Source: Raillietiella orientalis
Taxonomy: Eukaryota
Reading direction: 5' to 3'
Length of the DNA: 64,000 nucleotides
Assembly: GCA_036172245.1 (NCBI GenBank)
Contig: JAYWIR010000092.1
Location: 124,001 to 188,000 of the forward strand
The position numbers were made by a program, and so were the translations under genes. Each line of letters starts with the position of its first letter. Positions within the stretch are counted from its first letter, which is position 1. The notes under the pieces were generated by a model. The model did not search any database. It was not told the DNA's origin and was given only the letters and a program-made list of their open reading frames with translations. Of the stretch, positions 3,001 through 60,659 are shown in pieces.

Positions 3001-4210
3001 ATACGCGACACATCCTGGACATTGCCACTCACTGGGATGACTGGCCGTATGCGGCGCACAAGGCCTACGCTTTGTTGTTGAACAACTCGAAAGGCCTGAT
3101 GACTGCGTTGCTAGGCTGAGCAGGCGAATGGAAAATAATGGACCCAACCTGGACGAGGTAGCAACGGCTGGTGCGAAAGCACAAAATCAAGATCGTGCCG
3201 AGAAGTGGGGAACTCTGGCAGGACGAGTCCATCCTGGTGATCCCTTGGATGCTTTGTGTCCCCCTGGACACGAGAAACTGGATCCACCAGCGGTCCAGAG
3301 TTACCCTTCAACAAATCCAGGAGTGGAAACGAGGAGGGTACCTACATCACACTCGTATACTTAGGTATATAGAGATGATGTTAGGAAGGTTTGCCCACAT
3401 GACTCCCGAAGTGTGGTTCAACCACAACGACTTTGCGTGGTCCAGGGTAACCAAAACAAACCTCCGAAGACTAATGCAAGAAGAACACAGTGATATCAGT
3501 GCCCTTCAGGAAGCCGCCGATCGCTAAGGGAGTGACCGGATCAACCTGTTAGCGATTGGCACGACGCTCTGGAGGAGTGACCTTCCGCCGGGCACCCAGG
3601 ATGACCTCCTGATGTTTTATCATGGAGGAATCCAGAGTGGGTCCCGATCGCAGCACTACACCGGAAGAAGGGAAGATCGAGACTGCACAGCATGTAGTGA
3701 CATCGACACGAGACTTCACGTCTTGACGTGTCCCACATTGCTGCATGACTAACTGATCCAGAAAAGGATCATCGGACTCACCACCGGGTCCGTAATGGAG
3801 ATCCTCGCCGGGAATTTTCAGGGGGATGGTAATGTTTCCTGTTACAATTTCATGGTGAGGACGACCATCGCCCCCTTCATCACCGCCATACTTGTGCGGT
3901 GGTGGAAAATGAGGAAAGTAACAGGAGCCGCACCACCGATGGAGATCTTACAAATTCTCCTGAAGAGGGCAATCGGCATTATAAACTGTGGGAAAATCCA
4001 AGCCTGGACGTACCGATCCATCCTGAAGAGGATCCAGGACGACGCCCGGGACCATCCAGCTGGAATTCCCCCCTTAAAAGCAGAACTCCAAGGCAACCCA
4101 AGGACTCCCAAGTGCAAAGTGTTTGTATTGAGTGAATGAGAGTGTGAATGTAAAAGGTTTATTTTTATAGAAGAATAAATTTACCCCACCCCTTATGGGA
4201 ATTGGGGAAA
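1..4210 (+). mobile_element. L1/Tx1-like LINE, family A copy 1 (5' part outside window), degenerate
   Basis: End of ORF1, then ORF2 with EN (IASWNVNG, CLQET), RT (WRPISILNSDAK, GVRQGDSLSP, YADD). Ends in AATAAA (4174) + CCCCA..TGGGG hairpin + AAA. Colinear with 55204-59413. Confidence 0.95.
561..4077 (+). pseudogene. Family A ORF2 (APE endonuclease + reverse transcriptase), several stops and frameshifts
   Basis: ORF pieces 456-941, 993-1364, 1533-2852, 3171-3527 and 3795-4139 match the family A copy 2 ORF2 in order. Confidence 0.93.
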
Positions 4211-5447
4211 TCTGCCGAGTCGACGATGGGTCGACTGCATGCAGCGTGCTTTTGCTCGTCGCGACGCTGCTTTTTACGGCGTTCGTAGCATTTGCAGAGA
4301 AACCTGCGCTAAAGTGGGACTGTCCCGAACTCGGAAGAGACAACCGAACAGGGCTAGAAGTTTTCGCACTGTTGCGATCTTCCTGTTTCCCTACCTTTCC
4401 CTCCATGGTGTTACGGTGATTTCCTCGTTCCTGGCTCGGAGAGGTAACTGCGATTTCGGCATTGAGGGAGGGCACGGCACGCGTCAAACCCTCGCGCCCC
4501 TTTTTAATTGGCTTTCCCGCCGTGACTTTCCCCTTTCGGGGCGTTGCGGAAGGGGATGCTTTCTTATCGTCCGCTGATCGCCCGTTGATTTTTCCGAGTT
4601 TTTGCGGACGACCTTTTTTTATTTGCCGCTGCGGCTCTTCGTGCAGTGGTCTCTTGAACCCGACGAATTTCCGCTGCAGCTCTTTTTCTTGCAAGTACCA
4701 GGCATTTTTTGATTTCGTGCCCGGAATCTTCGCAAAAGCGGCATCTTGGAGAGGGGCACTCTTAAATTCGGTGCCCATTTTTGCCGCACTGCTCGCACGC
4801 GCGAGTCTGGCCTATGAACCACAGGTGAACGACCGTGCCGTTCACCTGCAGCTGCTCACGCACAACACGCCTGTTCGCGACGGTGATCCGCGCGGTGGCT
4901 TGTCCAATGTGGACAGAGGGAAAATCCTTAAGAGGATTTGGCCTCCTGTACAGGGCGTGCACGATGGCGAACTTCGCTAGCACGCTTACAAGATCGCGGT
5001 CGGAGATTTCCGGTTCGATGGCGCACAATTGAACGACAAAAGGGTCGTCCATCGCGGTAGGTAGGACTTCCTTGCCATTGATGGTCAACGGCGTACGGAG
5101 AAGGCGCTGCAGAAGTGCTGCGTTCTTCCACCGAATCTTCGTATATTCCATCCTGCCGGCAGGCATTATGGCAAGGAGTTTCTCCTCGCGAACGCCGATA
5201 TGGACGAGCTCATCATTGAGCTCACTTCCAATTCTCCCGTTAAGGGGCCCACTGACCTTATAACGGAGTGCAGGCATGTATCCGGATGACACATATGCCT
5301 AGAACTCCGCATTACAGGGTCCTGGCCTTTGGGAGCTAACGACGGCGTAACCCCTCACCGGGGGTGAGGAAACCATTATGGAGGATGCGGCCACTTCAAG
5401 GGCAGCTGAAGTGCATCCAGTGGCTTGCTCCTCCACACTATCCTGTG
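4211..5447 (-). mobile_element. Family C ORF1 N-terminal fragment (host of A copy 1)
   Basis: GYMPALRYKV...CEQCGKNGHRI knuckle, colinear with 59414-60650. Confidence 0.9.
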
Positions 5448-6215
5448 CTGGACGATCAGGGCCACGAGCACTCGGCACCCGCCCAAATCCGCGGCCTGCT
5501 GCGTAGATACTTCTCCTCCCTGTATGCCAGGGCACCTCCGGAGAGAAACGTCTCACGATTCCTTCTTCCGGAAGTCGCTCCAGCGATCATGGAGGAGGAG
5601 AAAAAGACCATCGACGAGCCTTTCACGATGGACGAGATTCTCTTGGCCATCGGAAAGCTCAAGAGACGCAAGGCTCTAAAGGAGAACGGCCTGCCAGCGG
5701 AGTTTTAAAAAACTTTCGCTACTGAGCTTACATCCATGGTACCGCAAGTCACCTTGCTGAGCTTACATCCATGGTACCGCAAGTCATTAGCGGCCTCCTT
5801 AGCAGCTTTGTGCTGCCTTTGCGGGATCGTCGCAGCCTGGAGCAAGGCTACGGGACGACAACGCGACAAGGGTGTCATCCAGCCAGCCATCCAGTTTCTG
5901 AAGAGGGCGTTCCGATGGCCCTACCGGGATACAGGAATACAAAAGAAGCTTGCCGGCATCTTGCAAAGGCTGCAACGGCACCACCAGCAACTGTGATCCC
6001 TTTCCTTACCCTCCTAAATTTTCTTTTATTTTTTTGTTTTGTTTTTTGTTTTTCTCCCTTCTCCCTCCTACCGTGGTGGACCGTACCGGTCTGCGAATCG
6101 GTGACCCTGCAGGCTCTGTGTTTCTTCGTGCGTGGCTGGAGCCATGTTCCAGCCACCGCACGTCTTTGTAAATGTTTATTAAACACTAAACGCCCCGGCG
6201 AAATCCGAGTGAAAA
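5448..6215 (+). mobile_element. Family D-like remnant: ORF2 linker piece, ORF2 C-terminus, 3'UTR and 3' terminus
   Basis: LDDQGHEHSAPAQIRGLLRRY matches 61642 onward. It then jumps to AALCCLCGIVAAWS...*, a T-rich UTR and the terminal hairpin at 6188-6215. Assigning the 3' piece to family D is inferred from contiguity. Confidence 0.8.
5722..5786 (+). repeat. Direct repeat, 2 x 30 bp (CTGAGCTTACATCCATGGTACCGCAAGTCA), at an internal deletion breakpoint
   Basis: Copies at 5722-5751 and 5757-5786. Confidence 0.9.
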
Positions 6216-7466
6216 TCGAACGCCTTGTGAAAGACGACTGCGACCACCAAGGCACCTGGCGTTTTCTGCTGCCTTCGGCGCCTGTTCTTCTTGCTTGTGG
6301 CAACGACTTTCGCTTCAGCCAGGCTTCGCTGCGCCACGACTTTTTTCAGCTGCAACCAGGTACGCGCGAAAAGGATGTTCGCCTCCATGGATCGTCCCGT
6401 AACCGCGTAGGTTTGTTCCCGGCTCACCACAGATTCCGCGATACTTCCTAACCGCGCGACCCACAGCTTGGAAAACAACTTGACGTCCGAGTTCACCAAG
6501 GTGATCGGACGCCAGTTGTTAAGTTGACGCAAGTCTCCGCCTTTCGGCAGGAGACGCACCTTCGCTGAGCGGAAGGAATCCGACACATTCCCGGATTCAC
6601 TCATCAGCGTCGCGAGTTTCAGCATCAAGGGAATGAGCTCCACTGCAAAGCACTGATAAAACTCTGCAGGGAGCCCATCCTCGCCTGGCGCCTTTCGTCT
6701 CTTCAGCCCAGCGATTGCGGACGAAAATTCATCCGCCGTGAAGGGCTCGTCGAGACGTTTGCGTTCCTCCTCGCCGACAACACGAGCATCCTGAGACAGG
6801 AGTATCTCAGAAAGAATATCCTCCGTCGGGGATTCCGCGTAGAGCGAGGAGTAGTAGCGTCTCACAATGCGGCGTACTCCTGCTGGGGCCGAACATTCCT
6901 GGCCCTTGTCGTCCAACAGGCATGCTGCTCCGGACTGCCAGACCTGGCGCTCGGCCCTCGCCTTGTACTCTGCGAGACGCCCGACATCGGCGCGTCTCGA
7001 AAACGTGCGGGCCTGCAGAAAGTCTCTACTGTTGGCCACCCCCTCTCCGAAACCGCGTGGAAGCCGGTGCAAGGGGAATTGGCAGCAGAACTCGCGGACA
7101 GATCTTTTGAGATCGTCCCAGTCCGCAAGTCCTTGAATGGCAAAGCCTCGGAGGTATCCACGTAGATGCTCCGCAGCCTCCGGTTGGCTACGCCTATCCG
7201 CCGGCATCCTCCAGTTTTGCAAGGAAGGCTCCTTGTCTGGCGGAAGGAGCTCAAACTACAACCTGTGATGGTCAGAAAGCTTAGTCAACAATCGTACTCT
7301 CCTACCCACACGCGCATGCAGGTTCTCATCGAGGAAAACGTGATCGAGCGATCCTTCCATTCCAGGTTCGCTGACAATCAAGTTGGCGGCGTGCACCAAC
7401 GCGCACATCTCGATGGGCAGGGCGCGCTCCCTGTGGTGGCTTCAATCGTCGAAGAGCAGACGGACG
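6216..7466 (-). mobile_element. Family C-like ORF2 fragment (end of EN to RT 'HKAFD')
   Basis: ORF 6179-7222 is close to ORF 50679-53123 (PEAAEHLR, DWDDLKRSVREFCC, NNWRPITLVNSDVK). Confidence 0.92.
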
Positions 7467-10373
7467 TTTTCATCCGGTCACGTCGGGGCGTTTATTAAAA
7501 AACACTGTACATTTGCGGTACTAGGTCCCGCTAAGGCAAATATTTCATGAAACCTGCCAGGAAGCCGGTTCTGAAGCCAGCTTGTCCTCCTCGGCAGCGG
7601 AGGGGATAGAAGGTAAAACAAAAAGAAAAATAGATGAAATTACAGAAAGGAACTATTTGGAGGTCCGGGAAGGGATCACAGCCCGCTGGAGGAGGGGACC
7701 ATCCTCTCTAGGATGCCCTCGAGGTCCCTCGTCGTAGCTCCCAGATGGGACCAGCCGATCGCGATTCGCAGTTAGCGACCCGCGTGTACGATGGGGTTCC
7801 TGTCGCTGCTCCCTCTTTTGGCTGCGCTCCAGGCGGCCACAATCCATCTGAGGGAGAAGAGCGCTGCCGGGGTTTAGGCTGGTGGCAGGGCGTCTCGCAC
7901 GAAGAGGAGTCTCACAACGTCTCTTGGGGTACTGCCTACCGGCATAGGGAGGATCCCAGGATGACGTTCCCACAAGAGCCGGAGGGCAGCGCAGTCCACT
8001 AGCAGATTTATGAGGGATTCCTTCTCCCGCACACTGCACAGTTCTGTCTCACGTTCCCCAACTTCCAGTGGTGGTGGCGCATGTTGCAGGGAAGAACCGA
8101 GTGCAACAATAACAGCGCCGTTTTCTGCCACTTGAGAGGAAGGGTGGAGAAGTCTTTGAACAACGGGGGCCACTTTAGGTCATCCGCCGGGATGCCAAGC
8201 AGCTCGCTTTATCTCCGTATTCCATGCGAGTGAACGCTTGAGGATGCGGCATCTGCCAGTTGCCTCATTGTCCACCCGCTTAGATCCTTCTCCTTGCCCG
8301 CTATCCGGCAAGAGACTTGCCATCTCGGCTTCCGGTTGTTATGAAGCGCCCTTCGTAGGAAGGGCAGCGCCGTGGCCAGTGGGATCGTCTCTGCCCAAGT
8401 GCTTCTGGCGGGACACACGATCATGTTCCGCAGCGTGCAGTGGGTGTAGATGCCGGTGCGCAGGCGGTTGTCGGATTCTCCACTGATGTCTTTTAACTTT
8501 GCCCACGTTCCAACTGTTTCTTCCAGCCATGCGCTGGAGTTGTCGGGGCTGCAGGCCATGCACCCGTTCTCCTTTGCCAGGGTGGCCATGCGTCCCAGGA
8601 GAAGTCCGCATTTTCTTATTTTCCGGCAGGGGCACAGAAGAAAAGACGCGAGTTCTTCAGTCCCGGACACACGTCTTGCGAGAAGGCGGGCTGGAACGCA
8701 CCAACGGAAGTTCAACATTTTCGCTGAGATGGCTAGTGTGCGTCACCGCATCTGTGTTTTCATTCGCTCCATCGTCAGGACGCTAAGACCTCCGTCCCGA
8801 CGTGGTGCGCGCAAATCCTTTAAAGGCACATGAGGCCCCCCGCCGCCCCACAGGGCGATGCGTAGGAGGTCCTTTGTTCTTTTTTTCAGTTCACGGGGTA
8901 CGGGGAAAACAAACAGCAGAGGGCGAAGGAGAGGAACCGCGAACGCGTTCCACACCGCCGCCCGCTCCGGCAAGTGAAGCTTGCCTTCCAGAAACGGGCC
9001 GATCGCTGACTCCACTTTTTGGAGACGACCTGACCAGGCTTCTGACTGGCAGAAGTCCCCCAACGGAACGCCGAGGTACTTTAAGTACCTCTATGTGGGG
9101 ATCCTCAAGCGGATCCAGTCAAGCCGTCCGACTCACGTCGCACCAACCACTACCTCCGATGACTTCGCTTTATTTACCCGTAGTCCAGTCCCGCGGCTTA
9201 GCAGACAGAAGAAATCCTCGACTACGGCTGCCGGGGCGGACGTGGGCAAAAGGAGCAGAAGATCATCGGCGTAAGCCGCTACGGCCGGCGTACCTGGACA
9301 CGAGCTTCGGTGGGCAGCCAATGTCACCCTGTATGCTCTCAGCACCAGTTCGAAATAGGTGCTAAAGAGCAGGGGAGTCAGGCTGTCGCCCTGTCAAATG
9401 CCGGGCCTCACCTCTACGCCGAACACGTGCTGTCCTCTGAAAAACAAGTTGATGAACGCATTGCGCCAGCAGGCGCCCAGGTAGACCGTTAAGGTGTCCG
9501 GGAAGCCCATGCGATCCAGGAGCTCCAGAAGGAGTTCTCGGTCTACGCAATCGAACGCTTTGTGCAGATCGACTGCGATCGCTAGAGCCCCCTTCCCTTA
9601 CCGGTCGTCCCTTACTTGCTGCGCTGGCGCTTCCAAGTCAGTTTTGTCGACATTCCGTTTTTTCTCCAAATTTTTCTCGCGTTGCACATGGAACCATGTG
9701 CTGGCGAAGAACAGGTTCACTTCCATGCTTCGCCCGGGAAAAGCGTACGTCTGTTCCATGCTGAAAAAGCTGTCAGCTACCTGCCGCAGTCCCGCAGCCC
9801 ACAGTCCAGCCAGCAGCTTGGCGTCCGTGTTCACAATCGTGAACGGACGCTAGTTGCATCATTTTCTGAGGTCTTCTCCCTTAGGAAAGAGCCTCACCCA
9901 GGCTGACCGAAACGAGGCGGGAACATCGCCTTCGTTTCGGATCAGCCGTGTCAATTGGAGCACCAGGGTGGTCAGCTCTGCAACGAAGCTCTGAAAGAAC
10001 TCCGCCGGCAGGCCGTCCTCCCCTGGCGCGTGACGCCTCCTGAGCCTTTTAATAGCGGTGGTGATTACACCGGTCGTATAAGGCTCGTCGAGGCTTTCTT
10101 TCTCCTCCTCCCTTATGGCCGGGGCTCCATCTGGGAGCAAGCGCTGGAAGGCGTCCCACTCCGCAGGTACCCTGGCGCAAAGAGAGCAGTAAAATCCACG
10201 CACGAGGCGACGTATCGATGCTCGGTCTGAGTATTCCTTGTCCAGGTCGTCCAGCACGCTGGGCGGCCCGGATTGTCATCCTTGACGCTCGCCCCAACTT
10301 TGTACTCGGCCAAGCGACGAATGTCAGGGGTCCTTGAGAAACGACGGACGTGCAAATACGCCCTTTTGTAACG
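7467..10373 (-). mobile_element. Family B-like LINE, ORF2 linker to 3' end, degenerate
   Basis: APGEDGLPAEFF, AYADDLLLLL, ERAAVWNAF, PRRDGGL. Terminal AATAAA-hairpin at 7467-7496. Confidence 0.92.
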
Positions 10374-12410
10374 GGAGGACGTGTTTTTCCGTTGCTCCGT
10401 CAACAAGTACCGGGAAGCGGTTTCTTCTTGGAAAGTGTGTGTTTTTTCACATCGTAAGTGTCCGATGGCATCTCTGCCAGAGAACACCACGATGAAGGTA
10501 GGCGTGGGGAAGGCTAGTCATCCTTCACAGCCTACTGGATCAGTAGCATTCGCCCCGGAATCATCCCCGTCAACGCCGAGGACGTGGAGCGCCATGGTGG
10601 CCGCGCCGAGCGCGGAAATCTTGGAGGAGCAAGCGGCTTACAAGGCCTCAGGATATAAACCATCTCTGGTTTATAAAGTAGGACCCCTGTTCCATGGTCG
10701 CATTGCCCGGGTCTTCAGTAAGGCACTACAGGACTTTCCTGTAAGAGAAGAGGATCTTGACGGCCTCTCCGAACTCAGCGGGGGGCAGCGCGTGGAGGTC
10801 GTCTGCAAAGACGTAGCCTTAGCACAGCGAATGATAAAGACCCCGCTGAATATGGATGGCCGAAAAATCCTACCGGTTAGCATGGACCGCTCCGTAGTGG
10901 TCCATCTAACCGGAATCACAAATCAGATGACGCGCTTGGTGGTCAATTCCGAGTTGATGAAATACGGAGAGGTACACGCGTTGTGGCCAAAGCCCACCAT
11001 CTTCGAAGGTTTTCATGACCATTTTGGAGGCCAGGCTGCAGCGCGTTTCACTGTCAATGAGGGTGCTGGGTTGCCCCAGAAACTGAAGGTCGCGAAGGAA
11101 TCCGTCCACCTCTGGTACGTGGGGAAACCCCGCTATTGTGGCTACTGCAATGCAGTAGGGCACTTGCGCAAGCGGTGCCCGAACATTGAGTGCCACTTGT
11201 GCGGGTTTAAGGAACACGTTCGTCGTGTGTGCCCTAAACACCCCACACAAGTGCCAACTGCTGCCAGAAAGGCGCAGGCCAAAAAAATGAACAAGCTCGA
11301 AAGACCTAAGCGAGAAACTGTCCGACCCCAGCCGCCAACTGCTCTTCCTCACACCCAGGCGTCGGAGAATGAAACAGCGGAAGACGCGGGAGTGAAGGAG
11401 GGATGGCAACTGGTAGAGACCAGGAAGGAGAAACAAGTGGTGAAAGAACCACTGAAGTAAACGGAGAAAAAGAACACGGCAGGAAAGAATAATAAAGCCG
11501 CGCCGCTGTCAAAAATCTCCGCGAGTGCTCGGTAGCACTGGATCGCGTAAGCGTTCCTGAGGCTGCCACCCGGGACAACGAGCCCTCACTCACCGTTTCT
11601 GCCGCGTCCGAGGTTCGCGACCACGAACCCTCTGTTTACACAGAGGGTGAGCCGCGCGACGCGCTCGCCGACGGCGAGGACGCCGCCTACGCGAAGGCGT
11701 GGGAGGAGCTAGCGGTTACGCTGGCCGAGCGTGAGAACCCATCACGCAAGGCCGTGCGCAGGCCGGCTCCGCCGAAGAAGGCCCCCTTAGGTGAGTTCGA
11801 CCTGGGGGCCGTAAGTACATCCTCCTCTTCGGAGGCACCCCCTTTGAAGACGGGACGTAAGTCCCAAAAACCGAGGAGGCGCCTCCCGTCCCCGAGCGAG
11901 GAGGAGAAGCCGGAAGCCGACGACAGCGTGGGAAACCCGGAGGTAGAATTCCCACGCACGCAAGCCGTCGAGCAGGTCACCCCCTTGGAGGAGGGTAAAC
12001 AGGCTGGTGAAGTCCTCCCTGTAGTCGCCAAACCTGAACAGCTCGCCTCCATGGAGGAGGGCGAACAGAGAAACGCGACTCCACCGGAGGGCAAACCGGC
12101 CGATGCGCCGTTAACCATGGAGGAAGGGACCAGGTGCCTTTAGCACCTGACCCTCCCCTTCCACCTTGCGTCCCGCCCCAACAGGTGGCGGACGCCGCAG
12201 AGCCAATTTCCCAGGAATAACACCTGTGATCGCCTGTCGCCGTCGGATCCGCGTGGCCAGTTGGAACGTCAAGGGTCTGCGCGACGACGGCAACAGACGA
12301 GATAAGGCCGACACCCTCCGTGACTTGGACCTGGCTTTGCTGCAGGAGATCGACGTGATCACCGCGGCAGACGTCCAGGAGATCGAGACGATCGCGGAGG
12401 GTCGGCTGTT
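10374..12410 (+). mobile_element. Family B LINE 5' half (5' end, ORF1, start of EN)
   Basis: GGAGGACGTGTTTTT 5' motif; ORF1; RVASWNVKG...LALLQEI endonuclease start. Confidence 0.93.
10465..12221 (+). pseudogene. Family B ORF1 (nucleic-acid-binding protein, two CCHC knuckles), internal stops
   Basis: CGYCNAVGHLRKRC and CHLCGFKEHVRRVC; stops at 11460 and 12143. Confidence 0.9.
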
Positions 12411-15198: not shown

Positions 15199-15200
15199 GA

Positions 15201-17203: not shown

Positions 17204-17300
17204 CGTCGGCCGCGCCCGAGCACTCTACGCCCTGGTCGTCGAGCAAACAAGCCGTTCCTGACCGCCAGACCTGGCGCTCGGCCTTGGCCTGGTACTCCGA
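17204..17300 (-). mobile_element. Host ORF2 remnant (SEYQAKAERQVWRSGTACLLDDQGVECSGAADV)
   Basis: Translation matches the family C ORF2 linker. Confidence 0.85.
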
Positions 17301-34595: not shown

Positions 34596-34605
34596 TTCGG
34601 AGTGA

Positions 34606-45048: not shown

Positions 45049-45147
45049 CGACGCTCCCGAGTCTCTCGGATTGAAGCCTTTTTAAGGCCTTGGTCCGGGA
45101 GTTCTGCAAGCAGTTCCCCTTGAACCGCCTGCCTTCCGGATTCGGCG
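45049..45147 (+). mobile_element. Host ORF2 remnant ending at 'SGFG-V'
   Basis: VREFCKQFPLNRLPSGFG. Confidence 0.85.
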
Positions 45148-47254: not shown

Positions 47255-47348
47255 CGCTCTAGGGTGGACGTGTTTTCTTGGAGCTCCTCGTGCCAGGAAG
47301 TCTCCCCCAGTGCAAGCGTCGTGTGGTTCGGTTGTCGATCAGGCAGCG

Positions 47349-49010: not shown

Positions 49011-49527
49011 TCTTCCCCGCAGTAATTCCGGGAATCCCCTCCCGCCGTCGTCTGCGCATCGCCGTTTGGAACGTGAACGCCATGACAGACGCCGGCAGGA
49101 GACGAGACATGGCCGCCCTTCTGGAGTCCTACGACCTTGCGCTGCTGCAGGAGATCCACGTGATCTCTGCAGAACAAGCGCAAGAGATTTCTCACCCGGT
49201 CACGCCGGGGCGTTTATTCCATATAACATAACCAAAAAAAAAAAAGCAATTATACAAAATAAACCAGTTGGGAACCAAACTTCCAACCGACGACTGAACA
49301 AGAATGAAGAGAATATTGCTGGCACGCAGGCCAGAGTAACAGTTTTGTGAACGGTGTGGGGGGGCGGGAAACACAAAGAAACCAAAATAAAATAAAAACA
49401 ATGAATAAGGAGGACGGGATAAGGGTCTTTGGGATCGCTCTGGAAGACACGGGGATAAAAGCATGGGCACCGGAAATTTTATTGAGCGAACGGGGACGGG
49501 GTATGGGTGGGCGAGAGGTCGCAGGGG

Positions 49528-52500
49528 TCACCGGATTACGCCGTTCTCAAAGGTGTGTAAACCGGCGATGTATGCCGGTGATGTCCTCATTCACCTTGTC
49601 ACGAAGATGAGATCACCTTGCAGCCTTCTCCATGAATTGAGCTGCAAGCAGGTGAGCCTCCCTTCGCTGCGATGACAACTCCAGGGCGTAGCGGGCCTTC
49701 ACGATGGCGCGAACGCAACACATGGTTGCGACAATCGCGCCAACCGAAAGTCCATTTCTGCTGAAGAAGCGCCGCAGCACATCAATGGCAGTGCCTCCTT
49801 GTGGCATGATGGCCGAAGTGAGCCTTCGCCACAGTTCACGGAGGTCACCGCAGTCCAACAAAAGGTGCGGAAAAGACTCGATCTCTCCGCACCTTAAACA
49901 GTTTGGCAAAGCAGCTCCCCCGGAAACGATGCTTCGCTGCCTATTACAGTGAAATGCACAATGTAAAAAGAGCAGCACATCTTGTTTCCACTTAAGGGGG
50001 AACACGGAGCTGTCCAAACAAACGGGGGGGACCACTATCTCTCCGGGGGGCACACTTAAATGTTCGCTCCACCGAAGCAGTCCCTTCGCCCGATTCCGAG
50101 GTGTGGCGGCTTGCACCAGCTCCTTTGTCGTCCAGCTGCCGAGGAGCTTACTGACTCCCGCTATTTTGCAGGAGAACTCCCATTCCGCCGGTAGGCAACC
50201 GTCGTTGCTTGCCCTGAGGGCAGACAGCGCTACGGCGAGTGGTGTGGCGGCCAGACGATCCGACAACTTCTTGTCCTGCATGACTTCGTCCATTTGATGA
50301 CTGAGGAGAAGTCGCAGGCGTCGAAGATCATCCGGGCGCGTTCCTTCGGAAGCTGCCCACGATGAAAAAGATTCCTGCCGCCATGCATTAATGTTCATGG
50401 GGCGGCAGGAGATCCAGCTTTGGGCTTCCAGCAGTGAGGACAGCAGCCTCAGCGGGAAGCCAAACCCTATTCTGGTGTGCCGAAAGTGGGGTAGCAACGA
50501 AAGCAGTCCCTCGCTTCCCGTGCAGCGCCTCAGTATAAGGCGTGCGGGTGAGCACCACGGCGTACACCACAGCTTGGCACAGAGCCGCAGCATGCGAAAC
50601 TGCACCTGCAGTTCGATGCTGTTTAAGTCGAGGATGCCCAAGCCTGCATCCTGACGCGGCGCCACCAAGTCTTTAAGTCTAACACGGGATCTTGCAGCGC
50701 CCCACAACGCTTTGCGTAGAAGGCGCTGCGCCCAGACTTTGACTTCCTGGGGGGGTGGACAAACAAAAAAACAGGGGGCGGAGGAGGGGGGCAACGAAGG
50801 TGTTCCAGATGCAGGCCCGTTCCGGCAAGACGAACTCGCCTCCTGAAAACGGGCTAAGTGCACGCTCTGCCTTCCGAAGGCAGTCCGACCACGCTTCTGA
50901 GACGCAGAAGTCGCCCAACGGCACGCCAAGGTACCTGAGGTACCTGCCCGTGGGGATCCCCAGGTCGATCCAGTCGGACTGCCCCTCCCACGTCGCACCA
51001 ACCGGAACAACCATACACTTACTCCTGTTAACGCTCACGCCCGCACCACGACGGATCAACTCAAAGAAATCTTCAAGCGACGCTGTCGGGGTGGACATGG
51101 GCAACAGGAGAAGCAGGTCGTCGGCAGAGGCTGCCACGGCGGGCGTACCTGGACAGGAGCTCGGCAGGTTGGCTAGCGTCAGCCTGTAAGCCTCCAGCAC
51201 CAATTCAAAATAGATGCTGAAGAGCAGCGGGCTTAAGCTGTCACCCTGCCTAATTCCTCGTCGTACCGGCACGCCGTACACGCGACAACCACTGAAAACA
51301 ATGGATGTAATCGCGTGGCGCCAGCAGGAGCGCAAGTACGCCAACAGGGATGCCGGAAGACCCAGACGTTCCAAAAGCTCAAGAAGAAGCTTTTGGTTCA
51401 CGCAATCGAAAGCTTTGTGCAGATCGACTGCAACCGCCAAGGCTCCCGGTGTCTCCCTTTGCGTCCCGCGCCTCCGTCGGTGAGAGATCGAAGGTGTCGC
51501 TTCCGCACGACGATCCACCGCCACACGATGCTGCAATTGCAGCCATGTGCGGATGAACAAGAGATTCGCGTCCATGGACCGCCCAGGAACAGCGTACGTC
51601 TGCTCCGGACTTACCAAGGATTGCGCGATCCTACCCATCCGCGCCACCCAAAGTTTCGAGAACAACTTGACGTCCGAATTCACTAATGTGATCGGACGCC
51701 AGTTGTTCAGTTGGCGCAAATCTCCGCCTTTCGGCAGTAGACGCACCTTCGCTGAGCGAAACGAGGCGGGGACATCGCCCGAGTCTCGCATCAGCGACGA
51801 GAGCTGGAGCACCAGGGGGATGAGCTCCGCCGCAAAACACTGAAAGAATTCCGCGGGGAGCCCATCTTCGCCTGGCGCTTTTCGTCTCTTGAGCCCCGAG
51901 ATGGCCGAGGAAATTTCCTCTGCCGTGAAGGGCTCATCAAGACGCGCGCGTTCCTCCTCGTCTACAACAGGTGCATCAATCGGCAGAAGCAGCCGGGAGA
52001 GGCTGCGTTCTGTCGGTGCCTCTGCATACAGAGAAGAGTAATAGCGCCTGACTATCCGTCGCACGTCGGCTGGAGCCGAGCATTCCCGGTCCTGGTCGTC
52101 GAGCAGAACTGTCGCCCCTGACTGCCAGACCTGGCGCTCGGCCTTGGCCTTGTACTCGGATAATCGACCAACGTCCGCGCGCCTGGAAAAGGAGCGGGCC
52201 TGCAGAGAATCTCTGCTGTTGGCTACGCCCTCTCCGAAGCCGCGCGGAAGCTGGTGCAAGGGAAACCGGCAGCAGAACTCGCGGACCGATCTTTTCAGAT
52301 CGTCCCAGTCCTCGAGCTCACTTATGGCAAAGCCGAGGAGGTACTGGCGAAGATGCTCAGCCGCCTCCGGGTGGCTTAGCCAGTCTGCCGGCATCCTCCA
52401 AAAACAGTTTGGAGGCCCCTTGCCTGGCGGGAGCACCTCGAACTCGAGCCTGTTGTGGTCTGAAAGCACGGACGGCACGGGACCTCTCCGACCCACTCGA

Positions 52501-53120
52501 CAGAGCAAGTGTTCATCAAGGTATACGTGGTCCGGCGTTGCTGCTATAACAGGGTCGCTAGCGAACAAGTTGCACGCGTGCACGGACGCGCACATCTCTT
52601 CCGCTAGCAACTTTTCCCTTTTGTGGGATCTAGTCTCGGAAAGCAGGTGGACGTTAAAGTCCCCCGCAATGAGATGGGCCACAGTAGGGTGAGATCGAGT
52701 GAGCCACTGGCCTTGAAGGGTACCGAAGAACTCAATCCTTTCGGCCCATCGTCCAGCACCGCTCGGCGCGTACACGTTGGTTACGACAAGGTCGATCGAG
52801 TCGGACCACTGGAGTACAAGCTGTCCCACTCGGCCTTCCGTGTCGAAACGAACGCTGCGCACCGCTCCCGCCAAAGTTCCTCGCACGAGGAAAGCGACGC
52901 CGCACGTACGTGCAACGCCGCACCGATAAAGTAGCGTTCCGCCCGCGCGCCGTTCGATTTCGGCAGCCTGCTCTCCGGAGATGCTGTGAATCTCCCGCAG
53001 GAGCGTCAAGTCGAAGGCGCGCAGAGCGTCAGCCACTAGTCGCCTCTTCTCCTCGTGTTGGAGCCCGTTGACGTTCCAAGACGTTACGGCAACACGACGA
53101 GAAGACGCGATTGCCCTCAT
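49528..53120 (-). pseudogene. Family C ORF2 (EN + RT + Cys motif); SADD in place of YADD, frameshift at ~50765, late stop
   Basis: ORFs 50679-53123 and 49613-51010: TSWNVNG, AGDFN, GIRQGDSLSP, CLRCGEIESFPHLLLDC. Confidence 0.92.
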
Positions 53121-53792
53121 CACGGCTGGGAAAGCGAGGCCGTGGTGCGCGCCTCACCCGGCGAGCGGGCAGTAAGCAGCACGACGGGCTGGAGGGCGCG
53201 GTCGCCACCGGCCTCAACTGTGCTGCACGTAATCGGGTGCTCCTCCCCGGGTGCAGAACCTGTGGGTTCCGGGGTGAGCACTCGCAGTTCCGCGGCGAGT
53301 GTGTCACGCCTCAGGGCTTCAGCCCTGCGGGCGCTCGCTCCCGCGCGAGTTACGCGTCGTTCAGCTGCGTTATCGGACTCCTTTGCGAAGTCTGATGCTC
53401 GCACGATCGACGGGCGCTTGCATCCGTCCGATTGCACCGGAATGGTCTTCTCGGCGGTCACAGAAGCGGACTTGCACGCGTTGAAGGCGTTGGCTTTTTC
53501 CTTGGAAGAGTCACAAGCCGCGCGTGTTTTCGTATTCGCGCGACTGCTTTTTCCTTTGGAAGAGCTCAGGGATGGAGGTTGCGGAGCTTTCTTTGGAGAT
53601 TTTTCTTTCCTCCTCTCCACAACCTTCCATTTGCCTTCGCGATTTTCGGAAGCTTCCGCGACAGTAGTTGCATAAAACCTCCGGGATTTTCGCTGCGTTC
53701 TCTGGGGGCGTTGCTTTCGCTACGCCTTTAAAAGGCGGCAACGGAGTCACCTTCTTGACAGTCGGGAGATCGCTCCGCTCCTGCCGAGTCGG
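53120..53792 (-). pseudogene. Family C ORF1 C-terminal part
   Basis: Continues from 59414 across the A insertion (...SPTRQ|ERSDL...) and ends LSQP* overlapping the ORF2 ATG. Confidence 0.85.
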
Positions 53793-53962
53793 TGAACTTG
53801 CTCCGCGGCTCGAAGTATTGTGCGCTTGACAACTTAATCAGTTCATTGTGCTCGTGTGTGCCCGGAAAGGGGAAGTTTTCCAGAAGAAACAAAAAAAGAA
53901 GCGGCGAGGAGATCGCGGCAAAAGACCTGCAGTGGTCCCGTGCAGCAAGACCAGCTGCCAGG

Positions 53963-55750
53963 ATGCAGGCACCTAGAAGAGGAGTGGATAGACCGTCGTC
54001 CCCCATGGAAGCCATGGAGGTAACGTGCGGCAACGGCGAGGCGGTGGCAGGCATGCCGAGGATCGCGCCCGCGGCGGGCTTTGCTGCGCCGGCGGCGGCG
54101 ATGCCAAGGGTCGTGCCCGCGGCGACGACGGCGGAGGTCGTGCCCGCGTCGGCGACGCCGAGGATCGTGCCCGCGGCGGGGAAGGTCGCGCCTGCGGCGG
54201 CGATGCCGAGGGTGCCGCCCGCGGCGGTAACGGCGGCAACGTCGAGGTTTGCGCCCGCGGCGGTGGCGTCCCAGGCGGGACCCGCGGGCGTCCACGCGGT
54301 GCAGGGAGCGACGCCATCTTGTTCGGCTGCGGCGTCGCAGCCCTTTTCTTATGTGTCGGTGGCGGCTGGACAGGCGAGTGTCCACCCACCTAGGAAATTC
54401 GGTAAGCCGCTTAGCGGAAAAGTACTAAAAGTGGACCGACCAATAGTGGAAATAGGCCCCAACGTGAAGCCCATTATCTTCAAGACGGGGCTAATAAAAT
54501 TTAATAACATCAGGGAGGTCTATTTGTCCCTCGACAAGACGGACATAGACTTTGATCGCATTCAGGCGATCATTCCATCAAACAACGGGTTCACAGACTT
54601 TACAGACTGTGGAAACATTAGAGAGCGATTGATCCAGAAGGGGATCAATATACAAGGACGGATGGTTTGTGGTATTGGCGAGATGCCATACACAACCGTC
54701 TTTTTAAACGGCATCTCCATCCTCACAGCGCAACTAGCAGTGTGGAATTACTTGGAGCAGTTTGGGGAAGTTCTGGACCTTGATTTCCAGAACTTCTCTG
54801 GAAACATATTTTCTGGCGACATGATCGCCAAGATGAAGTTGAGGGAGGGAGCGGTGATCCCTGGATTGGCCGTTATTGACGAACAATCCCAGGGAGTGAA
54901 TGTGCGTTACCGGCAACAACCGGTATTCTGCACCGGGTGCAAGCAGTTCGGCCACAGGGCCGGGGCTTGCCCAACGTGTCGTTGTTTCCGCTGCGTCAAA
55001 GTAGGACATCAAGTCCGAAACTGCCCGCAGCCGGAGGTGTGCTCCTTCTGCAAGAAACACGGACATGCGAAATGGGGCTGTCCGGAGTTTGAAAACTGCA
55101 GAAGGATTCGAGGTCTCTCTCCCGTGAGAGAGAGAAACATCAAGGAGGCCGAGCAGCCTCAGAAGGCAGGAAGGCAGAAAAAAGTGAAAGAAGCCGTCCC
55201 GGTGTCGGCGGACGGCTTCATAGAAGTGGGAAAGAAGGGAAAGAGGAGGATGCTCGTCAAGGAGCAAGGAACTCCTCAAATCCTGGAAGCACCAGAGCAG
55301 GAAGGCGAGAAGATGGAGGTAGCGCAGGAAGGCGCGAAGGAAGAGAGACAGGAAGCCACTAAAGTGTCGCAGGAAGCTCTGCAGACTACGGAGGAGTTGG
55401 CAACACTGGCGGAGGAGATCATGGAGGTGCAGAGCGGTCCTCAGCAAGAGAAAATCTTGCAGAAGATCTGCACTGCACAAGAGAACATCAACCAGGTTGT
55501 GGAGGTCGCTGAACGCGAGAAGTTAGAGGAACAGCTTCTCGACGTGAAGGCGAACTTCTGCGCCAAAGTCGAAATAGAGGCGCTATCTCGAAAATTGATC
55601 GCGCAGGCGGAACACTCTACGGAGGAGGCGGAAATTACCGACCTCACAGGTACGGAGAGTGACGCCGGCAGCGAGAATCCCGCTGCTTCTTCATTGTCTG
55701 GAAGAGCACGCTCTCTCAGACAGAAGAAGCTCAGGAAGGCCAAAAAATAG
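53963..55750 (+). CDS. Family A ORF1 protein, open; Ala/Pro repeats and three CCHC knuckles (start codon uncertain)
   Basis: CTGCKQFGHRAGAC, CFRCVKVGHQVRNC, CSFCKKHGHAKWGC. Confidence 0.88.
   Translation: MQAPRRGVDRPSSPMEAMEVTCGNGEAVAGMPRIAPAAGFAAPAAAMPRVVPAATTAEVVPASATPRIVPAAGKVAPAAAMPRVPPAAVTAATSRFAPAAVASQAGPAGVHAVQGATPSCSAAASQPFSYVSVAAGQASVHPPRKFGKPLSGKVLKVDRPIVEIGPNVKPIIFKTGLIKFNNIREVYLSLDKTDIDFDRIQAIIPSNNGFTDFTDCGNIRERLIQKGINIQGRMVCGIGEMPYTTVFLNGISILTAQLAVWNYLEQFGEVLDLDFQNFSGNIFSGDMIAKMKLREGAVIPGLAVIDEQSQGVNVRYRQQPVFCTGCKQFGHRAGACPTCRCFRCVKVGHQVRNCPQPEVCSFCKKHGHAKWGCPEFENCRRIRGLSPVRERNIKEAEQPQKAGRQKKVKEAVPVSADGFIEVGKKGKRRMLVKEQGTPQILEAPEQEGEKMEVAQEGAKEERQEATKVSQEALQTTEELATLAEEIMEVQSGPQQEKILQKICTAQENINQVVEVAEREKLEEQLLDVKANFCAKVEIEALSRKLIAQAEHSTEEAEITDLTGTESDAGSENPAASSLSGRARSLRQKKLRKAKK
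54052..54270 (+). repeat. Degenerate GC-rich coding minisatellite (MPR[IV]xPAA... units)
   Basis: About 5 PR-x-x-P-AA units; a similar array with fewer units lies at ~20730-20880. Confidence 0.8.
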
Positions 55751-55763
55751 GTCTTCCCCTTTT

Positions 55764-58700
55764 ATGGCCTCTTCCCTATCGACCGCCAGGAGGATAAACA
55801 TCGCCTCCTGGAACGTAAACGGTGTGGTCGACCAGGTAAAAAGAAGAAGGATTGTGCGGACCATCGCACAACAAGACATCGTGTGCCTGCAGGAGACCCA
55901 CAGGATGGGTCTCGAGATAAGCCAGCGAATAGAACGGCGATTCAACGGGCAGATGTTCGTCAACGAAGGAGAACGGAACACGAAGGGTGTGGCGGTGCTA
56001 ATAAAGAACAACTTAGCCCCCACTATTCTGGAAGTGTTCTGTCCCCAACCCGGACGAATCATCGGCGTGCGACTGGCCTGGTCCGCGACTGTTCACTTTA
56101 TCCTGGTGAACGTGTACGGGCCGCACAGGCTAAAACATCGTTGTGCGGAGGCGCTGCATGCAACACTCCGGCAAAAGGTCGCCCCTAAGGACGTCGTGAT
56201 AGTTGCTGGCGATCTCAACATCTTGGATGAGATCATTCATTCGGAAGACGCCAGAGGAAGGACGGCGAATCGACGGCTATCCGAGGAGTTCGGACTGGTC
56301 TGGCGAACAGCAAGCCACAAGCCAATCGATCACGTCCTGCACAGCACCGAACTTGGGAACCGCATCCAGGGGTTTCGCGACACTATGACTACGGTGTCCG
56401 ATCACCCCCTGGTGCGGTTTTCCCTAAGAACGGAGAATCCTCGACGGAGGCAAGGCACCAGGGCGGCGCTCATCAGCATGCCCGCCTGGTTCGAAACCCA
56501 TCCCGGACATCAGGCTGTCCTGGAGGCGATTCTGAGGGCAACAACAATCCGAAGAGTCGCCGACTGGGACAGCCTGAAACACAGGATACACCTGTTTGCG
56601 AACATGCAGTTCGGGGATAGGCGCTTGAGGCAAAAGGCGTACCAAGAGCTGAACATCCAAGATCGCTCCCTCTCAAAGTACTTCGATCAGTACGAGAGTC
56701 GGTACGTCCTCAATAACATAAAAGGGGAAGTCGGCGTGCTGGAGAAGAGAAATCTGGCAACAGATATCTTCTGCATCCAGTACGACGGCCAAAAGCGACA
56801 GTCGTCTGAGGACATCGTGGATGCCTTTCACAGGCATTACACGAAACACTTCAGGCGACAACAGCTGTGTCGCTCTAGTCAACAGGCCTTCTTGAGCTAT
56901 CTCGAGAAGAGGACCGACGACCTCCAGCGGAACAGACTGGAGGAGGAGTTCTCCGAAGAAGAGGTGAAGACTGCGTTTGGGCAACTACGCAAGGACGTGG
57001 CAGCGGGCCCTGACAGTGTACCCATCTCTCACTATCAGCGGTACTTGCATGCCTACCTGCGTTTGTTCCACCAGTTGACCCTCTGCATCCGTGAAGAAGG
57101 AAGACTTCCACAGTCCTTCTACGAGAGTCGGATGAGATTGTTGCCAAAAGGAGGCGACCTCACGCAGGTCGCTCAATGGAGGCCAATCTCGATCCTGAAC
57201 TCGGATGCCAAGTGGTTGGCGAAGATCTGGTCCAACCGCTTAGGCAAGGTCATGTTGAGGCTCATCTCTCCGGTCCAAACGTGTGCAATCCCTGGACGTT
57301 ACATGTCGGACAATGTCAAGTGTGCTTAGGCCACCGTCGGACTCAGCCGATACGTCGGCGAGAACCTGGCGCTGGTGTTCACTGACATGGAGAAGGCCTT
57401 CGACTCCATCGACCATGGGATGCTGCTGAAGTTTCAGGAGAAGCTAGGCCTTCCGGAACACTTCAGCAACTTCGTGAGGGCGGTACTCCAAAACCAGTAC
57501 TGCCGAATCGAAATCAACGGCCAGGAGACGGCAGCAATCCGGATGGAACGGGGAGTCCGGCAGGGCGATTCGCAAAGTCCGATGATGTTCGTCATCTACA
57601 TGGAGGCGTTGTCGTCCTCTATCGAGAAGAGCGGACGACTGCAAGGCATAATCATAGATTCCGAGCGTCTTACCCATCTGCATACGCTGATGATCCACTC
57701 TTCTTTATCAAGAGAGAGAAATCAACGAGCGTTTCTGGATGTGGTAGACCTGATGGATCAAGGCCTGGGTCTAAAGATCAACGCCCAGAAAAGCCAGCTT
57801 TTGCCCGTTGAAATCTTCGATCTCTCCACTCTAGCGGGGAGAGGATTCCGAACGGTGGACAAGGCCATGTACCTGGGTGTCTACATTGGCGACGTCTCCT
57901 CGTCGAAGCTATTGTGGACCGAGATCCTAGGGAAAACGGCCAAGGAAGCAGCCAAGTACACCCGAACGGACCTTGGAATGAAGCGAAAGGCCAATATATG
58001 GAACGGAGTACTTTTTCCAAAAGTGCTCTTCGGGGCGGTCTCCGCTAGGATGAACAAGGACACTACTAGGGAGTTCGACAAGCTGCAAAGAAAAACACTC
58101 TGGGGCCACTATCGCCCAAGAGTAAGACTGAAACCCCTGTGTCGTCCCAGGGAAGAAGGAGGTTCCGGGATGAAGTCGCTTGCACATTCCATGGAAATCA
58201 TGGATACGCGACACATCCTGGACATTGCCACTTACTGGGATGACTGGCCGTATGCGGCGCACAGGGCCTACGCGTTGTTGCTTAACAACTCGAAAGGCCT
58301 GATGACTGCGCTGCTAGGCCGAGCAGGCAAATGGAACAAAATCGACCCCACCTGGACGAGGAAGCAACGGCTGGTGCGGAAGCACCAAATCAAGATCGTG
58401 CCGCGAAGCTGGGAACTCTGGCAGAACGAGTCCATCCTGGTGATCCCTTGGTTGCTTCCTGTCCCGCCGGACACGAGAAGCTGGATCTACCAGCGGTCCA
58501 GAGTTACCCTACTGCAATTCCAAGAGTGGAGGCGAGGAGGCTACCTACATCAATCTCGTATACTTCGGTATACAGAGATGATGTTAGGAAGGTTTGCCCA
58601 CAGGACCCGCGAAGTGTGGTTCAACCACAACGACTTCGCATGGTCGAGGGTAACCAGAACAAACCTCCGAAGGCTCATCCAAGAAAACGACCGTGACACC

Positions 58701-59279
58701 AGTGCCCTCCAGGAAGCCACCGTACGCTATGGGAGTGAACGGTTCAACCTGTTAGCGATCGGCACGACGCTGTGGAGGAGCGACCTTCCGCCGGGCACCC
58801 AGAATGACCTCCTGATGTATTATCACGGAGGAATCCAGAGTGGGTCTTGATTGCAGCACTTCACAGGAAGACGGGAAGACCGAGACTGCGCAGCATGTGG
58901 AGACGACGACACGAGACTTCACGTCTTGACGTGTCCCACACTCCTGCATGACTGGCTGATCCTGGAAAGGATCATAGGACTTACCAACAAGTCCGTTATG
59001 GAGATCCTCGCCGGGATGTTTCATGGGGATGGTAATGTTCCCTGTTACAATCCCATGGTGAGGACGACCATAGCCCTCTTCATCACCGCCATACTTGTGC
59101 GGTGGTGGAAAATGAGGAAAGCCAGGAGAACCGCACCACCGATGGAGATCCTACAAGGGCTCTTGAAGAGGGAAATCGGCATCAGGAACTGCGGGAAGAT
59201 CCACGCCTGGACGTACCGATTCATCCTGAAGAGGATCCAGGACGACGCCCGGGACCATCCAGCTGGAATTCCCCCCTGA
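55764..59279 (+). pseudogene. Family A ORF2; stops at 57329 and 58850, local frameshift removing YADD at ~57680
   Basis: ORFs 55659-57329, 57375-58850 and 58851-59279. The TACGCTGATGAT sequence is out of frame. Confidence 0.93.
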
Positions 59280-59413
59280 AAAGCAGAACTCTAGTGCAAC
59301 CCAAGGACCCCCAAGTGCAAACTGTTTGTATTGAGTGAATGAGAGTGCGAATGTAAATTTCGTATTTTTGTTGAAAAATAAACTTACCCCACCCCTTGTG
59401 GGACTTGGGGAAA

Positions 59414-60659
59414 CCTGCCGAGTCGGCGATAGGGCGACTGCATGCAGCGTGCTTTTGCTCGTTGCGACGCTGCTTTTTACGGCTTTCGTAGCCTTTTTAG
59501 TGGGGCCTGCGCTGCAGTGGGGCTGTCCGGAACTCGGAAGGGACAACGGAACGGGGCAAGAAGTCTTTGCACTGTTGCGATCTTCCTGTTTTCCTACCTT
59601 TCCCTCCAGGGTGTTACGGAGATTTCCTGGTTCCAGGTTCGGAAAGGTGCCTGCGAGTTCGGCAGAGAGGGAAGGCACGGCACGCGTCAAAGCCTCGCGC
59701 CCCTTTTTAATTGGCTTCCCCGCCGTGACTTTCCCCTTTCGGGGCGTTGCGGGCGGGGATGCTTTCTTTTTATCCGCGGATCGCTCGTGGTTTTTTTCGA
59801 GTTTTTGCGGACGACGTTTTTTATTTGCGGCTGCGGCTTTTTGTGCAGTGGTCTCTTGAACCCGACGAATTTCCGCTGCGGCTCTTTTTCTTGCAAGTAC
59901 CGGGCACTTCTTGATTTCGTGCCCGGAATCTTTGCAATAGCGGCATCTTGGAGAGGGGCACTCTTTAATTCGGTGCCCATCCTTGCCGCACTGCTCGCAC
60001 GCGCGAGTCTGGCCTAGGAACCACAGGTGAACGACCGTGCCGTTCACCTGCAGCTGCTCAGGCACAACACGCCTGTTCGCGACGGTGATCCTCGCGGAGG
60101 CTTGTCCAATGTGGACAGAGGGGAAATCCTTTAAAGGATTTGGCCTCCTCCACAGAGCGTGCACGGTGGCGAACTTCGCCAGCACACTTACGACATCGCG
60201 GTCGGAGATTTCCGGTTCGATGTCGCACAATTGAACGACAAAAGAGTCGTCCATCGCGGTAGGTAGGACTTCCTTGCCATTGATGGTCAACGGCGTACGG
60301 AGAAGGCGCTGCACAAGTGCTGCGTTCTTGCACCGAATCTTCGTGTATTCCATCCTGCCAGCAGGCATTGTGGCAAGGAGTTCCTCCTCGCGAACGCCTA
60401 TCCGGACGAGCTCATCATTGAGCTCACGACCGATTCTCCCGTTAAGTGGCCCACTGACCTTATAACGGAGTGCAGGCATGTATCCTGATGACACATATGC
60501 CTGGAACTCCGCATCGCAGGGTCCTGGTCTTTGGGAGGTAACGACGGCGTAACTCCTCACCGGGGGCGAGGAACCCATTACGGAGGATGCGGCCACTTCA
60601 AGTGCAGCTGAAGTGCATCCAGTGGCTTGCTCCTCCACACTATCCTGTGTACTGGCCAT
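59414..60659 (-). pseudogene. Family C ORF1 N-terminal part
   Basis: CEQCGKDGHRIKEC and CRYCKDSGHEIKKC. Confidence 0.9.

Follow-up and report, generated by a model that had tools for sequence, protein, structure and literature searches.

The LINE cluster

The DNA considered here is a 64,000-nucleotide (nt) stretch of the genome of Raillietiella orientalis (contig JAYWIR010000092.1, positions 124,001 to 188,000), referred to below as the window, and our subject is the long interspersed nuclear elements (LINEs) that lie nested within it. The window is a LINE cluster, composed mainly of successive target-primed insertions into resident LINE copies. Compared with itself, it yields dozens of copies that are 65–77% identical to one another, and its GC content is 52–62% over most of its length, with a block of 42–48% at ~22–32 kb. 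Two LINE families are present—E, which is abundant, and A—and their ORF2 proteins (ORF, open reading frame) are ~28% identical. Family A comprises an element at 53793–59413, its duplicate at 1–4210, and an older copy, deleted at the 3' end, at 18706–21135.

In Pfam scans the long ORFs match Exo_endo_phos and RVT_1, which identifies the elements as LINEs that combine an apurinic/apyrimidinic-type endonuclease (APE) with a reverse transcriptase (RT). The two domains (PF03372 and PF00078) co-occur on the same frames, at 50679–53153 for example (E=7.7e-9 and 1.1e-17, respectively), and others likewise; the frame at 55599–57329 has a Pfam match of E=7.5e-17. Matches to zf-CCHC (19.4 bits versus a cutoff of 20.8) and zf-RVT (25.9 bits versus 27.5) are weak and below threshold; CCHC patterns can be discerned in the ORF1 translations. 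Strand and element coordinate were assigned to each fragment by combining tblastn with an nhmmer profile of family E, for which two window elements were joined into a backbone and 12 fragments added, and which was run on the window. The profile has 5701 positions; in its coordinates, called 'model' positions here, ORF2 begins at 1738 and the 3' terminus is 5701.

The copies bear the hallmarks of target-primed reverse transcription (TPRT): target-site duplications (TSDs) of 13, at least 12, 14 and 46 bp, 5' truncation (at model 2669, 2732, 3471, 3632, 3871 and 4963), and 3' ends that are complete in all. The 3' terminus of E elements consists of a conserved AATAAA, a short GC hairpin, and then GGGTGAnAA(A). 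A poly(A) or simple-repeat tail is absent: the elements end ...AATAAACGCCCCGG..CCGGGTGAnAA(A), with at most 2–4 A residues. The same arrangement of AATAAA, short GC hairpin and 2–4 A, without poly(A), is common to both families (e.g. 49189–49235, 42377–42421 and 59380–59413). The hairpin has five predicted pairs; its sequence is conserved, and no compensatory changes were seen in it. Intact E 5' termini, for their part, bear GGACGTGT(C)TTTT.

Orientation of the 3' ends

The original prediction placed 11 intact 3' ends against LINE sequence in the window, and read ten of them as antisense to the host and one as sense. Reading base by base gives the same 11 coordinates, 12409 alone being ambiguous, by 3 nt; the nhmmer profile detects nine E-family 3' ends, all of them among these 11, and family A supplies two more. 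The orientation calls are likewise upheld by the host strands that nhmmer and tblastn assign (Table 1). The call at 34606 deserves comment. It is antisense solely relative to a 13-nt host remnant, 34593–34605, since the next large neighbor, S19, has the same strand as S20. The remnant matches the antisense host sequence of the other alpha junctions (alpha being the subfamily of E described in the next section), and because it sits between two + strand pieces of the host G, S17 and S21, we consider the call defensible.

The junctions of the two family A copies, 4210 and 59413, had been suspected of not being independent, and they are indeed one event, because positions 2–5447 equal 55205–60649 at 89% identity. 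The uncorrected count, 10/11 antisense (p=0.012), then becomes nine of ten distinct events (binomial p=0.021). Seven nests have host sequence that is recognizable on both sides, and in all seven the insert is antisense (a tally from the profile map; binomial p=0.016). The sole sense junction, 7467, where the 3' end of S6 meets S5, is one-sided, the matching host being absent from the other side. These counts come from one 64-kb window with ten distinct events, and from a pattern selected post hoc. Within the window the orientation bias is real, yet its structure is more specific than was proposed earlier.

If the four alpha junctions are counted as one, and the two junctions of a second subfamily, gamma, as one also, the ratio falls to 6/7 antisense (p=0.125), and because of this a general antisense rule is not established.

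Subfamilies and probable fixed target sites

The 3' parts of four alpha copies, S12, S20, S25 and S28, are 72–85% identical to one another over 600 nt, and 44–63% identical to all others. The 5' parts, S7, S19 and S24, behave similarly: 71–74% identical among themselves (S7 to S19 and S24, 72–74%), 45–54% to the rest; S6 is alpha-like. Judged by these identities, alpha is a distinct subfamily of E. Pairwise identity divides the other E copies into beta (S26 and the element H, which comprises S29 and S33), gamma (S8, S30 and S5, the first two 62% identical in mid-element) and delta (S9).

All four alpha 3' ends (18611, 34606, 42421 and 45148) join their host at the same nucleotide, model 2659–2662, and all are antisense to ORF2. 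The probability that three further alpha hits would fall within ±3 nt of a first, on the same strand, is ~2e-10. The site separates the endonuclease domain from the RT domain and adjoins codons for a conserved FPLHxLPxGFG stretch; there the sense strand of the insert is continuous with the antisense strand of host ORF2. Alpha thus presents what defines a target-site-specific element, namely independent copies at one target nucleotide in one orientation. Two hosts can be followed across the site. In P, S6 extends to model 2669 and S13 starts from 2660, with a gap of ~10 nt in the host where the intact 5' terminus of the inserted alpha element, Q, begins; in G, S17 extends to ~2639, 13 nt follow, and S21 starts from 2832. 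By our own tally from the profile map, the site is occupied in four of the eight window copies that contain it (P, G, S26 and K) and empty in four (S24, S33, S30 and S5).

Gamma appears to favor a region rather than a nucleotide. Both of its 3' ends, 12409 and 49189, are antisense, at model 1962 and 1935, respectively, 27 nt apart, and the chance of one such pair is ~0.005. Six of the nine antisense events, then, are alpha and gamma hits at the same places in host ORF2.

We regard subfamily-specific, site-specific self-targeting, with orientation as a by-product, as the best explanation of the antisense excess, and we hold it with somewhat more belief than doubt. The cluster would have been built by successive TPRT events into resident LINE copies, and the antisense excess would derive mainly from subfamily-specific target choice. 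Alpha would integrate at a single nucleotide, model ~2660, where cutting of the coding strand of host ORF2 would leave the insert always antisense; gamma would do likewise at model 1935 and 1962, some 700 nt upstream. An asymmetric target dictates the orientation of what lands in it, and all hits of this kind would be antisense. A repeat hit at the same site would generate a tandem alpha–alpha pair—S20, then S19—with 13 nt of host between, and the layout of S20, 13 nt, S19 is consistent with a further alpha insertion at that position, its TSD being 13 nt long. New inserts would bring with them fresh target sites, and so inverted nests would pile up. Recognition might reside in the APE endonuclease of the element, or in base-pairing between the target and a 3' tail produced by read-through, as is known for R1-type elements, or in both. 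The remaining antisense events, those of A, H and S9, may need no special cause.

One copied junction or several hits

A skeptic might suppose that segmental duplication or 3' transduction made many antisense junctions out of a few, and that the remainder is post hoc, small-sample noise. DNA-level copying is active in this region: the 89% duplication that makes one event of 4210 and 59413 also carries 6215, and S11 reproduces part of S6 at 92% identity. The boundaries of S13 and S27, moreover, agree within 1–8 nt, and the collapsed count is compatible with chance. The flanks of the alpha junctions speak against this account, however. At sites that distinguish alpha from beta, the flank in S26 is beta-type by 20:2, whereas the ratios are 13:10 for S13 and 10:7 for S27, and the 13-nt remnant in G holds a third flank variant, CTCCGAAG. 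The S13 and S26 flanks are identical at 67/94 positions, against 503/592 for the attached elements S12 and S25 (Fisher p=0.0018), and the S26 and S27 flanks at 60/97, against 437/591 for theirs (p=0.02). Target flanks, in other words, have not been inherited together with the element. Each alpha copy also has its own 5' truncation (model 3471, 3871, 4963, or full length) and its own outer flanks, and four separate TSDs prove separate insertions. We think copying and chance together an improbable source of the pattern.

Transduction of a single ancestral alpha junction was suspected in particular, S13 and S27 both being ~97 nt long, and was rejected as a general explanation, the flanks being of different host types. 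Beyond their similar endpoints the two lead into different sequences: S13 (18612–18705) is followed by the old family A copy, and S27 (45051–45147) by the 5' terminus of S26. Because the flanks differ in host type, and have diverged more than the elements attached to them, we conclude that there were at least three independent alpha hits, and probably four.

Table 1. Segments of the window, with positions in the window, model positions in the family E profile, and the strands that meet at each 3' junction
Segment	Position	Strand	Description	Model positions	3' junction
A'	1..4210	+	Duplicated family A copy, start cut by window edge; 89% identical to 55205-59413; tblastn matches to A ORF1/ORF2		4210, A+ / S32'-, antisense
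S32'	4211..5447	-	Duplicated 5' (ORF1) part of gamma S30; host of A'		
S3 + S4 (H')	5445..6215	+	Duplicated, internally deleted copy of beta H	2785-3100, 5147-5699	6215, S4+ / S5-, antisense
S5	6216..7466	-	Gamma-like ORF2 fragment; host at 6215 (antisense) and 7467 (sense)	2236-3487	
S6	7467..10371	-	3' part of host P, alpha-like	2669-5701	7467, S6- / S5-, sense (the only one)
S7	10372..12408	+	5' part of alpha Q, intact 5' terminus; in P; host of S8	6-1962	
S8	12409..15198	-	Gamma; joined to S7 at model 1962	2782-5701	12409±3, S8- / S7+, antisense
S9	15199..17203	+	Delta; nested in S8/S10; 46-bp TSD	3632-5701	17203, S9+ / S10-, antisense
S10	17204..17299	-	S8 continued beyond S9	2732-2828	
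S11	17297..18005	-	706-nt patch, 92% identical to 8097-8802 (part of S6)		
S12	17996..18611	+	3' part of alpha Q	4963-5701	18611, S12+ / S13-, antisense
S13	18612..18705	-	Host P continued; flanks alpha target site	2660 down to ~2566	
Old family A copy	18706..21135	-	Lacks 3' part; ORF1 to ORF2 residue ~232		
S16 + S17	30803..32167	+	Left part of host G	217-975, 2150-~2639	
S18 + S19	32168..34592	-	Second alpha of tandem pair; 3' part lost; intact 5' terminus at 34592	8-2130, 3532-3745	
13-nt G remnant	34593..34605	+	Alpha site; may be TSD of second alpha insertion	~2647-2660	
S20	34606..36315	-	Alpha	3871-5701	34606, antisense solely to 13-nt remnant; S19 on same strand
S21	36310..37032	+	Right part of host G	2832-3556	
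X (S24 + S25)	37226..42421	+	Alpha, intact 5' terminus; internal deletion at 40073		42421, S25+ / S26-, antisense
S26	42422..45050	-	Beta 5' part; host of X at alpha site; own 5' terminus at 45050	7-2662	
S27	45051..45147	+	97-nt remnant of host K, at alpha site	2563-2659	
S28	45148..47255	-	Alpha; upper end adjoins 5' terminus of H	3471-5701	45148, S28- / S27+, antisense
S29	47256..49188	+	5' part of beta H; interrupted by S30	2-1935	
S30, 3' portion	49189..53792	-	Gamma; ORF2 frame open for 824 amino acids, plus C-terminal frame		49189, S30- / S29+, antisense
A	53793..59413	+	Full-length family A LINE nested in S30; 13/13 TSD		59413, A+ / S32-, antisense
S32	59427..60752	-	5' portion of S30 (ORF1 with CCHC knuckle) to 5' terminus		
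S33	60765..64000	+	H continued; runs off window	1916-5150	

Nests and target-site duplications

All nine E-family 3' junctions are located within E copies; the family, that is, nests in itself. The nests form chains. In one, S28(-) and S5(-) flank H(+), which holds S30(-), which in turn holds A(+); in another, P(-) (S6 and S13) is the host of Q(+) (S7...S12), Q that of S8(-), and S8 that of S9(+). X(+), in addition, adjoins S26(-), and S20(-), with S19 in tandem, lies inside G(+). Four insertions are delimited by TSDs. That of A in S30 is CCTGCCGAGTCGG, 13/13 identical, at 53780 and 59414; that of S30 in H is AGCGCAAGAGAT, 12/12, at 49177 and 60777, and can be extended to ~25 with mismatches; that of S9 in S8/S10 is 46 bp long and 41/46 identical (15143–15190 versus 17204–17251); and that of H is TCGAACGCCTTGTG, 14/14, with its 5' copy at 47241–47254 and its 3' copy, in the duplicated block, at 6216–6229. 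The last of these joins host halves of different subfamilies, S28 being alpha-like (83% identical to S25) and S5 gamma-like (64–75% identical to S30 and S8, and 48% to S25). Either the host of H was a mosaic element, or the TSD link is a coincidence at conserved HKAFD codons.

Several observations sit awkwardly with self-targeting at fixed sites. No nick-site motif common to the four TSD-defined sites was seen. Gamma's two junctions do not coincide but are separated by 27 nt. The S13 and S27 flanks are identical at 58/85 positions, with distal ends at model 2566 and 2563, and this pair could share ancestry by 3' transduction or duplication, in which case the independent alpha hits would number three. 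The three TSD events that are neither alpha nor gamma (A, H and S9) are also all antisense, at unrelated sites. And the 5' flank of X (S23, +) is not the host that its 3' flank would predict; because of this disagreement we conclude that rearrangements have scrambled part of the record. As to how synthesis begins, the primer ends at the four TSD-defined sites have no complementarity to the A-ending tail, and this, with the absence of a motif, suggests initiation without terminal pairing.

The antisense orientation of A, H and S9 at unrelated sites keeps alive a broader idea: that TPRT nicks the coding (non-template) strand of resident LINEs whatever the subfamily or site, by way of transcriptional strand displacement, R-loops, or pairing of RNA with the template strand. 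Such a rule would account for the excess of antisense among the distinct junctions, for its appearance in five element types (A, alpha, beta, gamma and delta) and at several host positions (model 1935, 1962, 2660, 2828 and 3487, and the ORF1 of S30), and for the finding that two-sided nests are uniformly antisense while the lone sense junction is one-sided. Outside alpha and gamma, however, it can call on only three TSD-backed events, too few for a test, and the collapsed count does not sustain it. Nor does it sit well with two 5' ends that adjoin LINE sequence on the same strand—X with S23, and probably the old A copy with S15. Pairing of element RNA with homologous host DNA, one of the causes originally put forward, gains no support from a comparison with local conservation: the insertion sites show no preference for the best-conserved windows and range over conservation percentiles 14–94. 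All told, we find a general strand rule unlikely. Strand-specific nicking, another of those causes, stands in the restricted sense of sequence- or site-specific targeting (alpha 4/4 at one nucleotide, gamma 2/2 within 27 nt), and not in its general form.

The third of the original proposals, loss of sense insertions by recombination, belongs to a class of explanations in which LINEs arrive equally in both orientations and sense nests are later lost or hidden, by direct-repeat recombination, by deletion, or by selection against sense read-through. Elements here have often suffered internal deletions, as four same-strand junctions with forward jumps in model coordinate (S3/S4, S16/S17, S19/S18 and S24/S25) indicate, and in-register recombination of a sense insert with its host would leave no trace. 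Most nests join subfamilies that are only 45–75% identical, though, and this is too diverged for efficient homologous recombination. Loss by this route is disfavored for that reason: at such identities sense nests should persist, and none with two-sided support was seen in the window. Nor can filtering account for four alpha hits at a single nucleotide, and we consider it very unlikely to be the source of the bias.

A bolder conjecture, and a doubtful one, is that all the LINE lineages here obey obligate antisense homing, using the coding strand of resident, transcribed LINEs as the primer strand, and guided by DNA exposed in R-loops or by read-through 3' tails that bear the sequence of the preceding target. 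Each generation would disable the ORF2 of its host, inverted nests would yield hairpin double-stranded RNA (dsRNA), and a self-limiting, parasite-on-parasite system would shape a domain composed of LINEs only.

Relation to known LINEs

Insertion of LINEs into copies of their own family has precedents. Zepp is described as targeting copies of its own family and forming dense nested clusters, with tandem arrays mostly of 3' ends (PMC8226300). Zepp and Zepp-like L1 clusters of Chlorella, Coccomyxa and Chlamydomonas resemble the present cluster in this self-insertion. They are set apart, as far as that description goes, by arrangement: instead of tandem 3'-end arrays, the nests here are inverted, situated at a fixed internal position in ORF2, and without poly(A). 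Same-orientation tandem arrays of the Zepp kind were not found, the pair S20–S19 being the only tandem and nine of ten distinct 3' junctions being inverted. Cnl1 of Cryptococcus inserts preferentially into itself, too, and its nested arrays are described as tandem in orientation and near telomere repeats (PMC9942834). The likeness is again self-insertion into nested arrays, and the difference, on that account, the antisense orientation seen here. No telomere repeat array was seen in the window; four short tandem arrays were found, all inside LINE ORF1 regions.

Elements such as R1, TRAS and Tx1L are APE-type LINEs that are specific for a target, and in several respects alpha resembles them. 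Like it, they have APE and RT, enter a multicopy target at a single nucleotide with fixed orientation, and now and then form tandems; SART and Keno have been named as further examples in the Tx1 and R1 group. Most LINEs with a specific target are reported to belong to the early-branched, Tx1 and R1 clades, and to insert occasionally in tandem in that target (PMC4640811). The known targets are rRNA, snRNA and tRNA genes, microsatellites, telomeric repeats and a DNA transposon, whereas here the target is the antisense strand of a coding region of the element's own family. Our literature search did not find a LINE that homes to a fixed antisense site in ORF2 of its own family; the search returned listings mostly, and so absence from the literature is not proven by it.

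Two further comparisons are instructive. Mammalian L1 elements within genes show an antisense excess that extends along introns and has been put down to selection against insertions in the sense direction. The cluster shares with them an orientation bias relative to a transcribed host, but the host here is itself a LINE and the sites are mostly fixed. Twin priming, which gives rise to L1 5' inversions, likewise sets sense and antisense LINE segments side by side, and S11/S12 has such a layout. In twin priming, however, it is a piece of the same RNA that is inverted, whereas in the window complete 3' ends adjoin internal positions of different subfamilies, with TSDs. For S11/S12 itself twin priming was rejected: S11 is 92% identical to S6, and S12 only 61% like the 3' end of S6.

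LINEs that nest in themselves build whole chromosomal domains. The clusters of Zepp are considered to be algal centromeres and the arrays of Cnl1 are subtelomeric, both of them described as tandem. If our reading is correct, homing to one antisense nucleotide in the ORF2 of relatives would be a different choice of safe target, one that disables competitors and spares genes. Long inverted LINE repeats, a natural substrate for dsRNA-based silencing, would be another outcome. With a conserved target of ~100 bp and a defined cut site, alpha would make a test case for whether it is the APE endonuclease or the RNA tail that sets the target choice of a LINE.

Duplications, deletions and other features of the window

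The segmental duplication extends from 2–5447 (equal to 55205–60649 at 89%) to 5446–5760, which equals 61640–61954 at 88.6%. It carries A, the 5' part of S30 and part of H, and copy 1 lacks 60650–61639. There is a second internal deletion in copy 1, from model 3100 to 5147, bridged by a direct (templated) duplication of 30 nt at 5723–5787. The S11 patch (17297–18005 versus 8097–8802, on the same strand), at the 5' junction of S8/S10, is 92% identical to its counterpart, far above the 65–77% that is usual between copies; its appearance suggests templated repair or gene conversion, and not twin priming. The alpha element X has a sharp internal deletion, from model 2793 to 3237, at 40073, and a contig from a public DNA run, X1, diverges from the window exactly there.

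Matches outside the window are scarce. A search of protein databases gave 19 matches, the best at 64% (a metagenome protein on a 2.9-kb contig) and the others at 31% or less. A metagenome scan with the ORF2 alignment found five loci, at identities of only 27–35%, and matches in the ESM Atlas were to generic APE+RT clusters without a usable taxon. Among public sequencing runs, the DNA run X1 contains 16% of the sampled window words, and no RNA run was listed as containing any. Its contigs are 90–99% similar to many parts of 34001–54000, and so the LINE families occur in a related sample too; the contigs are short and mostly 90–99% alike, and none could be used to confirm any junction.

The low-GC block, at 21700–30800 (42–47%), contains only decayed, E-like 3' fragments, at 26868–27807, 28463–28784 and 30251–30563, and Pfam matched no family to the 12 ORFs of the block. 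Mutation resembling repeat-induced point mutation (RIP) was considered as the cause of its composition and rejected, RIP indices being normal at 21.7–30.8 kb, and depletion of CpG is not evident in the block (observed/expected 0.8–1.0). Tandem repeats occur in ORF1 of both families: in A at 54053–54264, with periods of 27–48 nt, and in H at 47374–47456, where a 42-nt unit is present twice.

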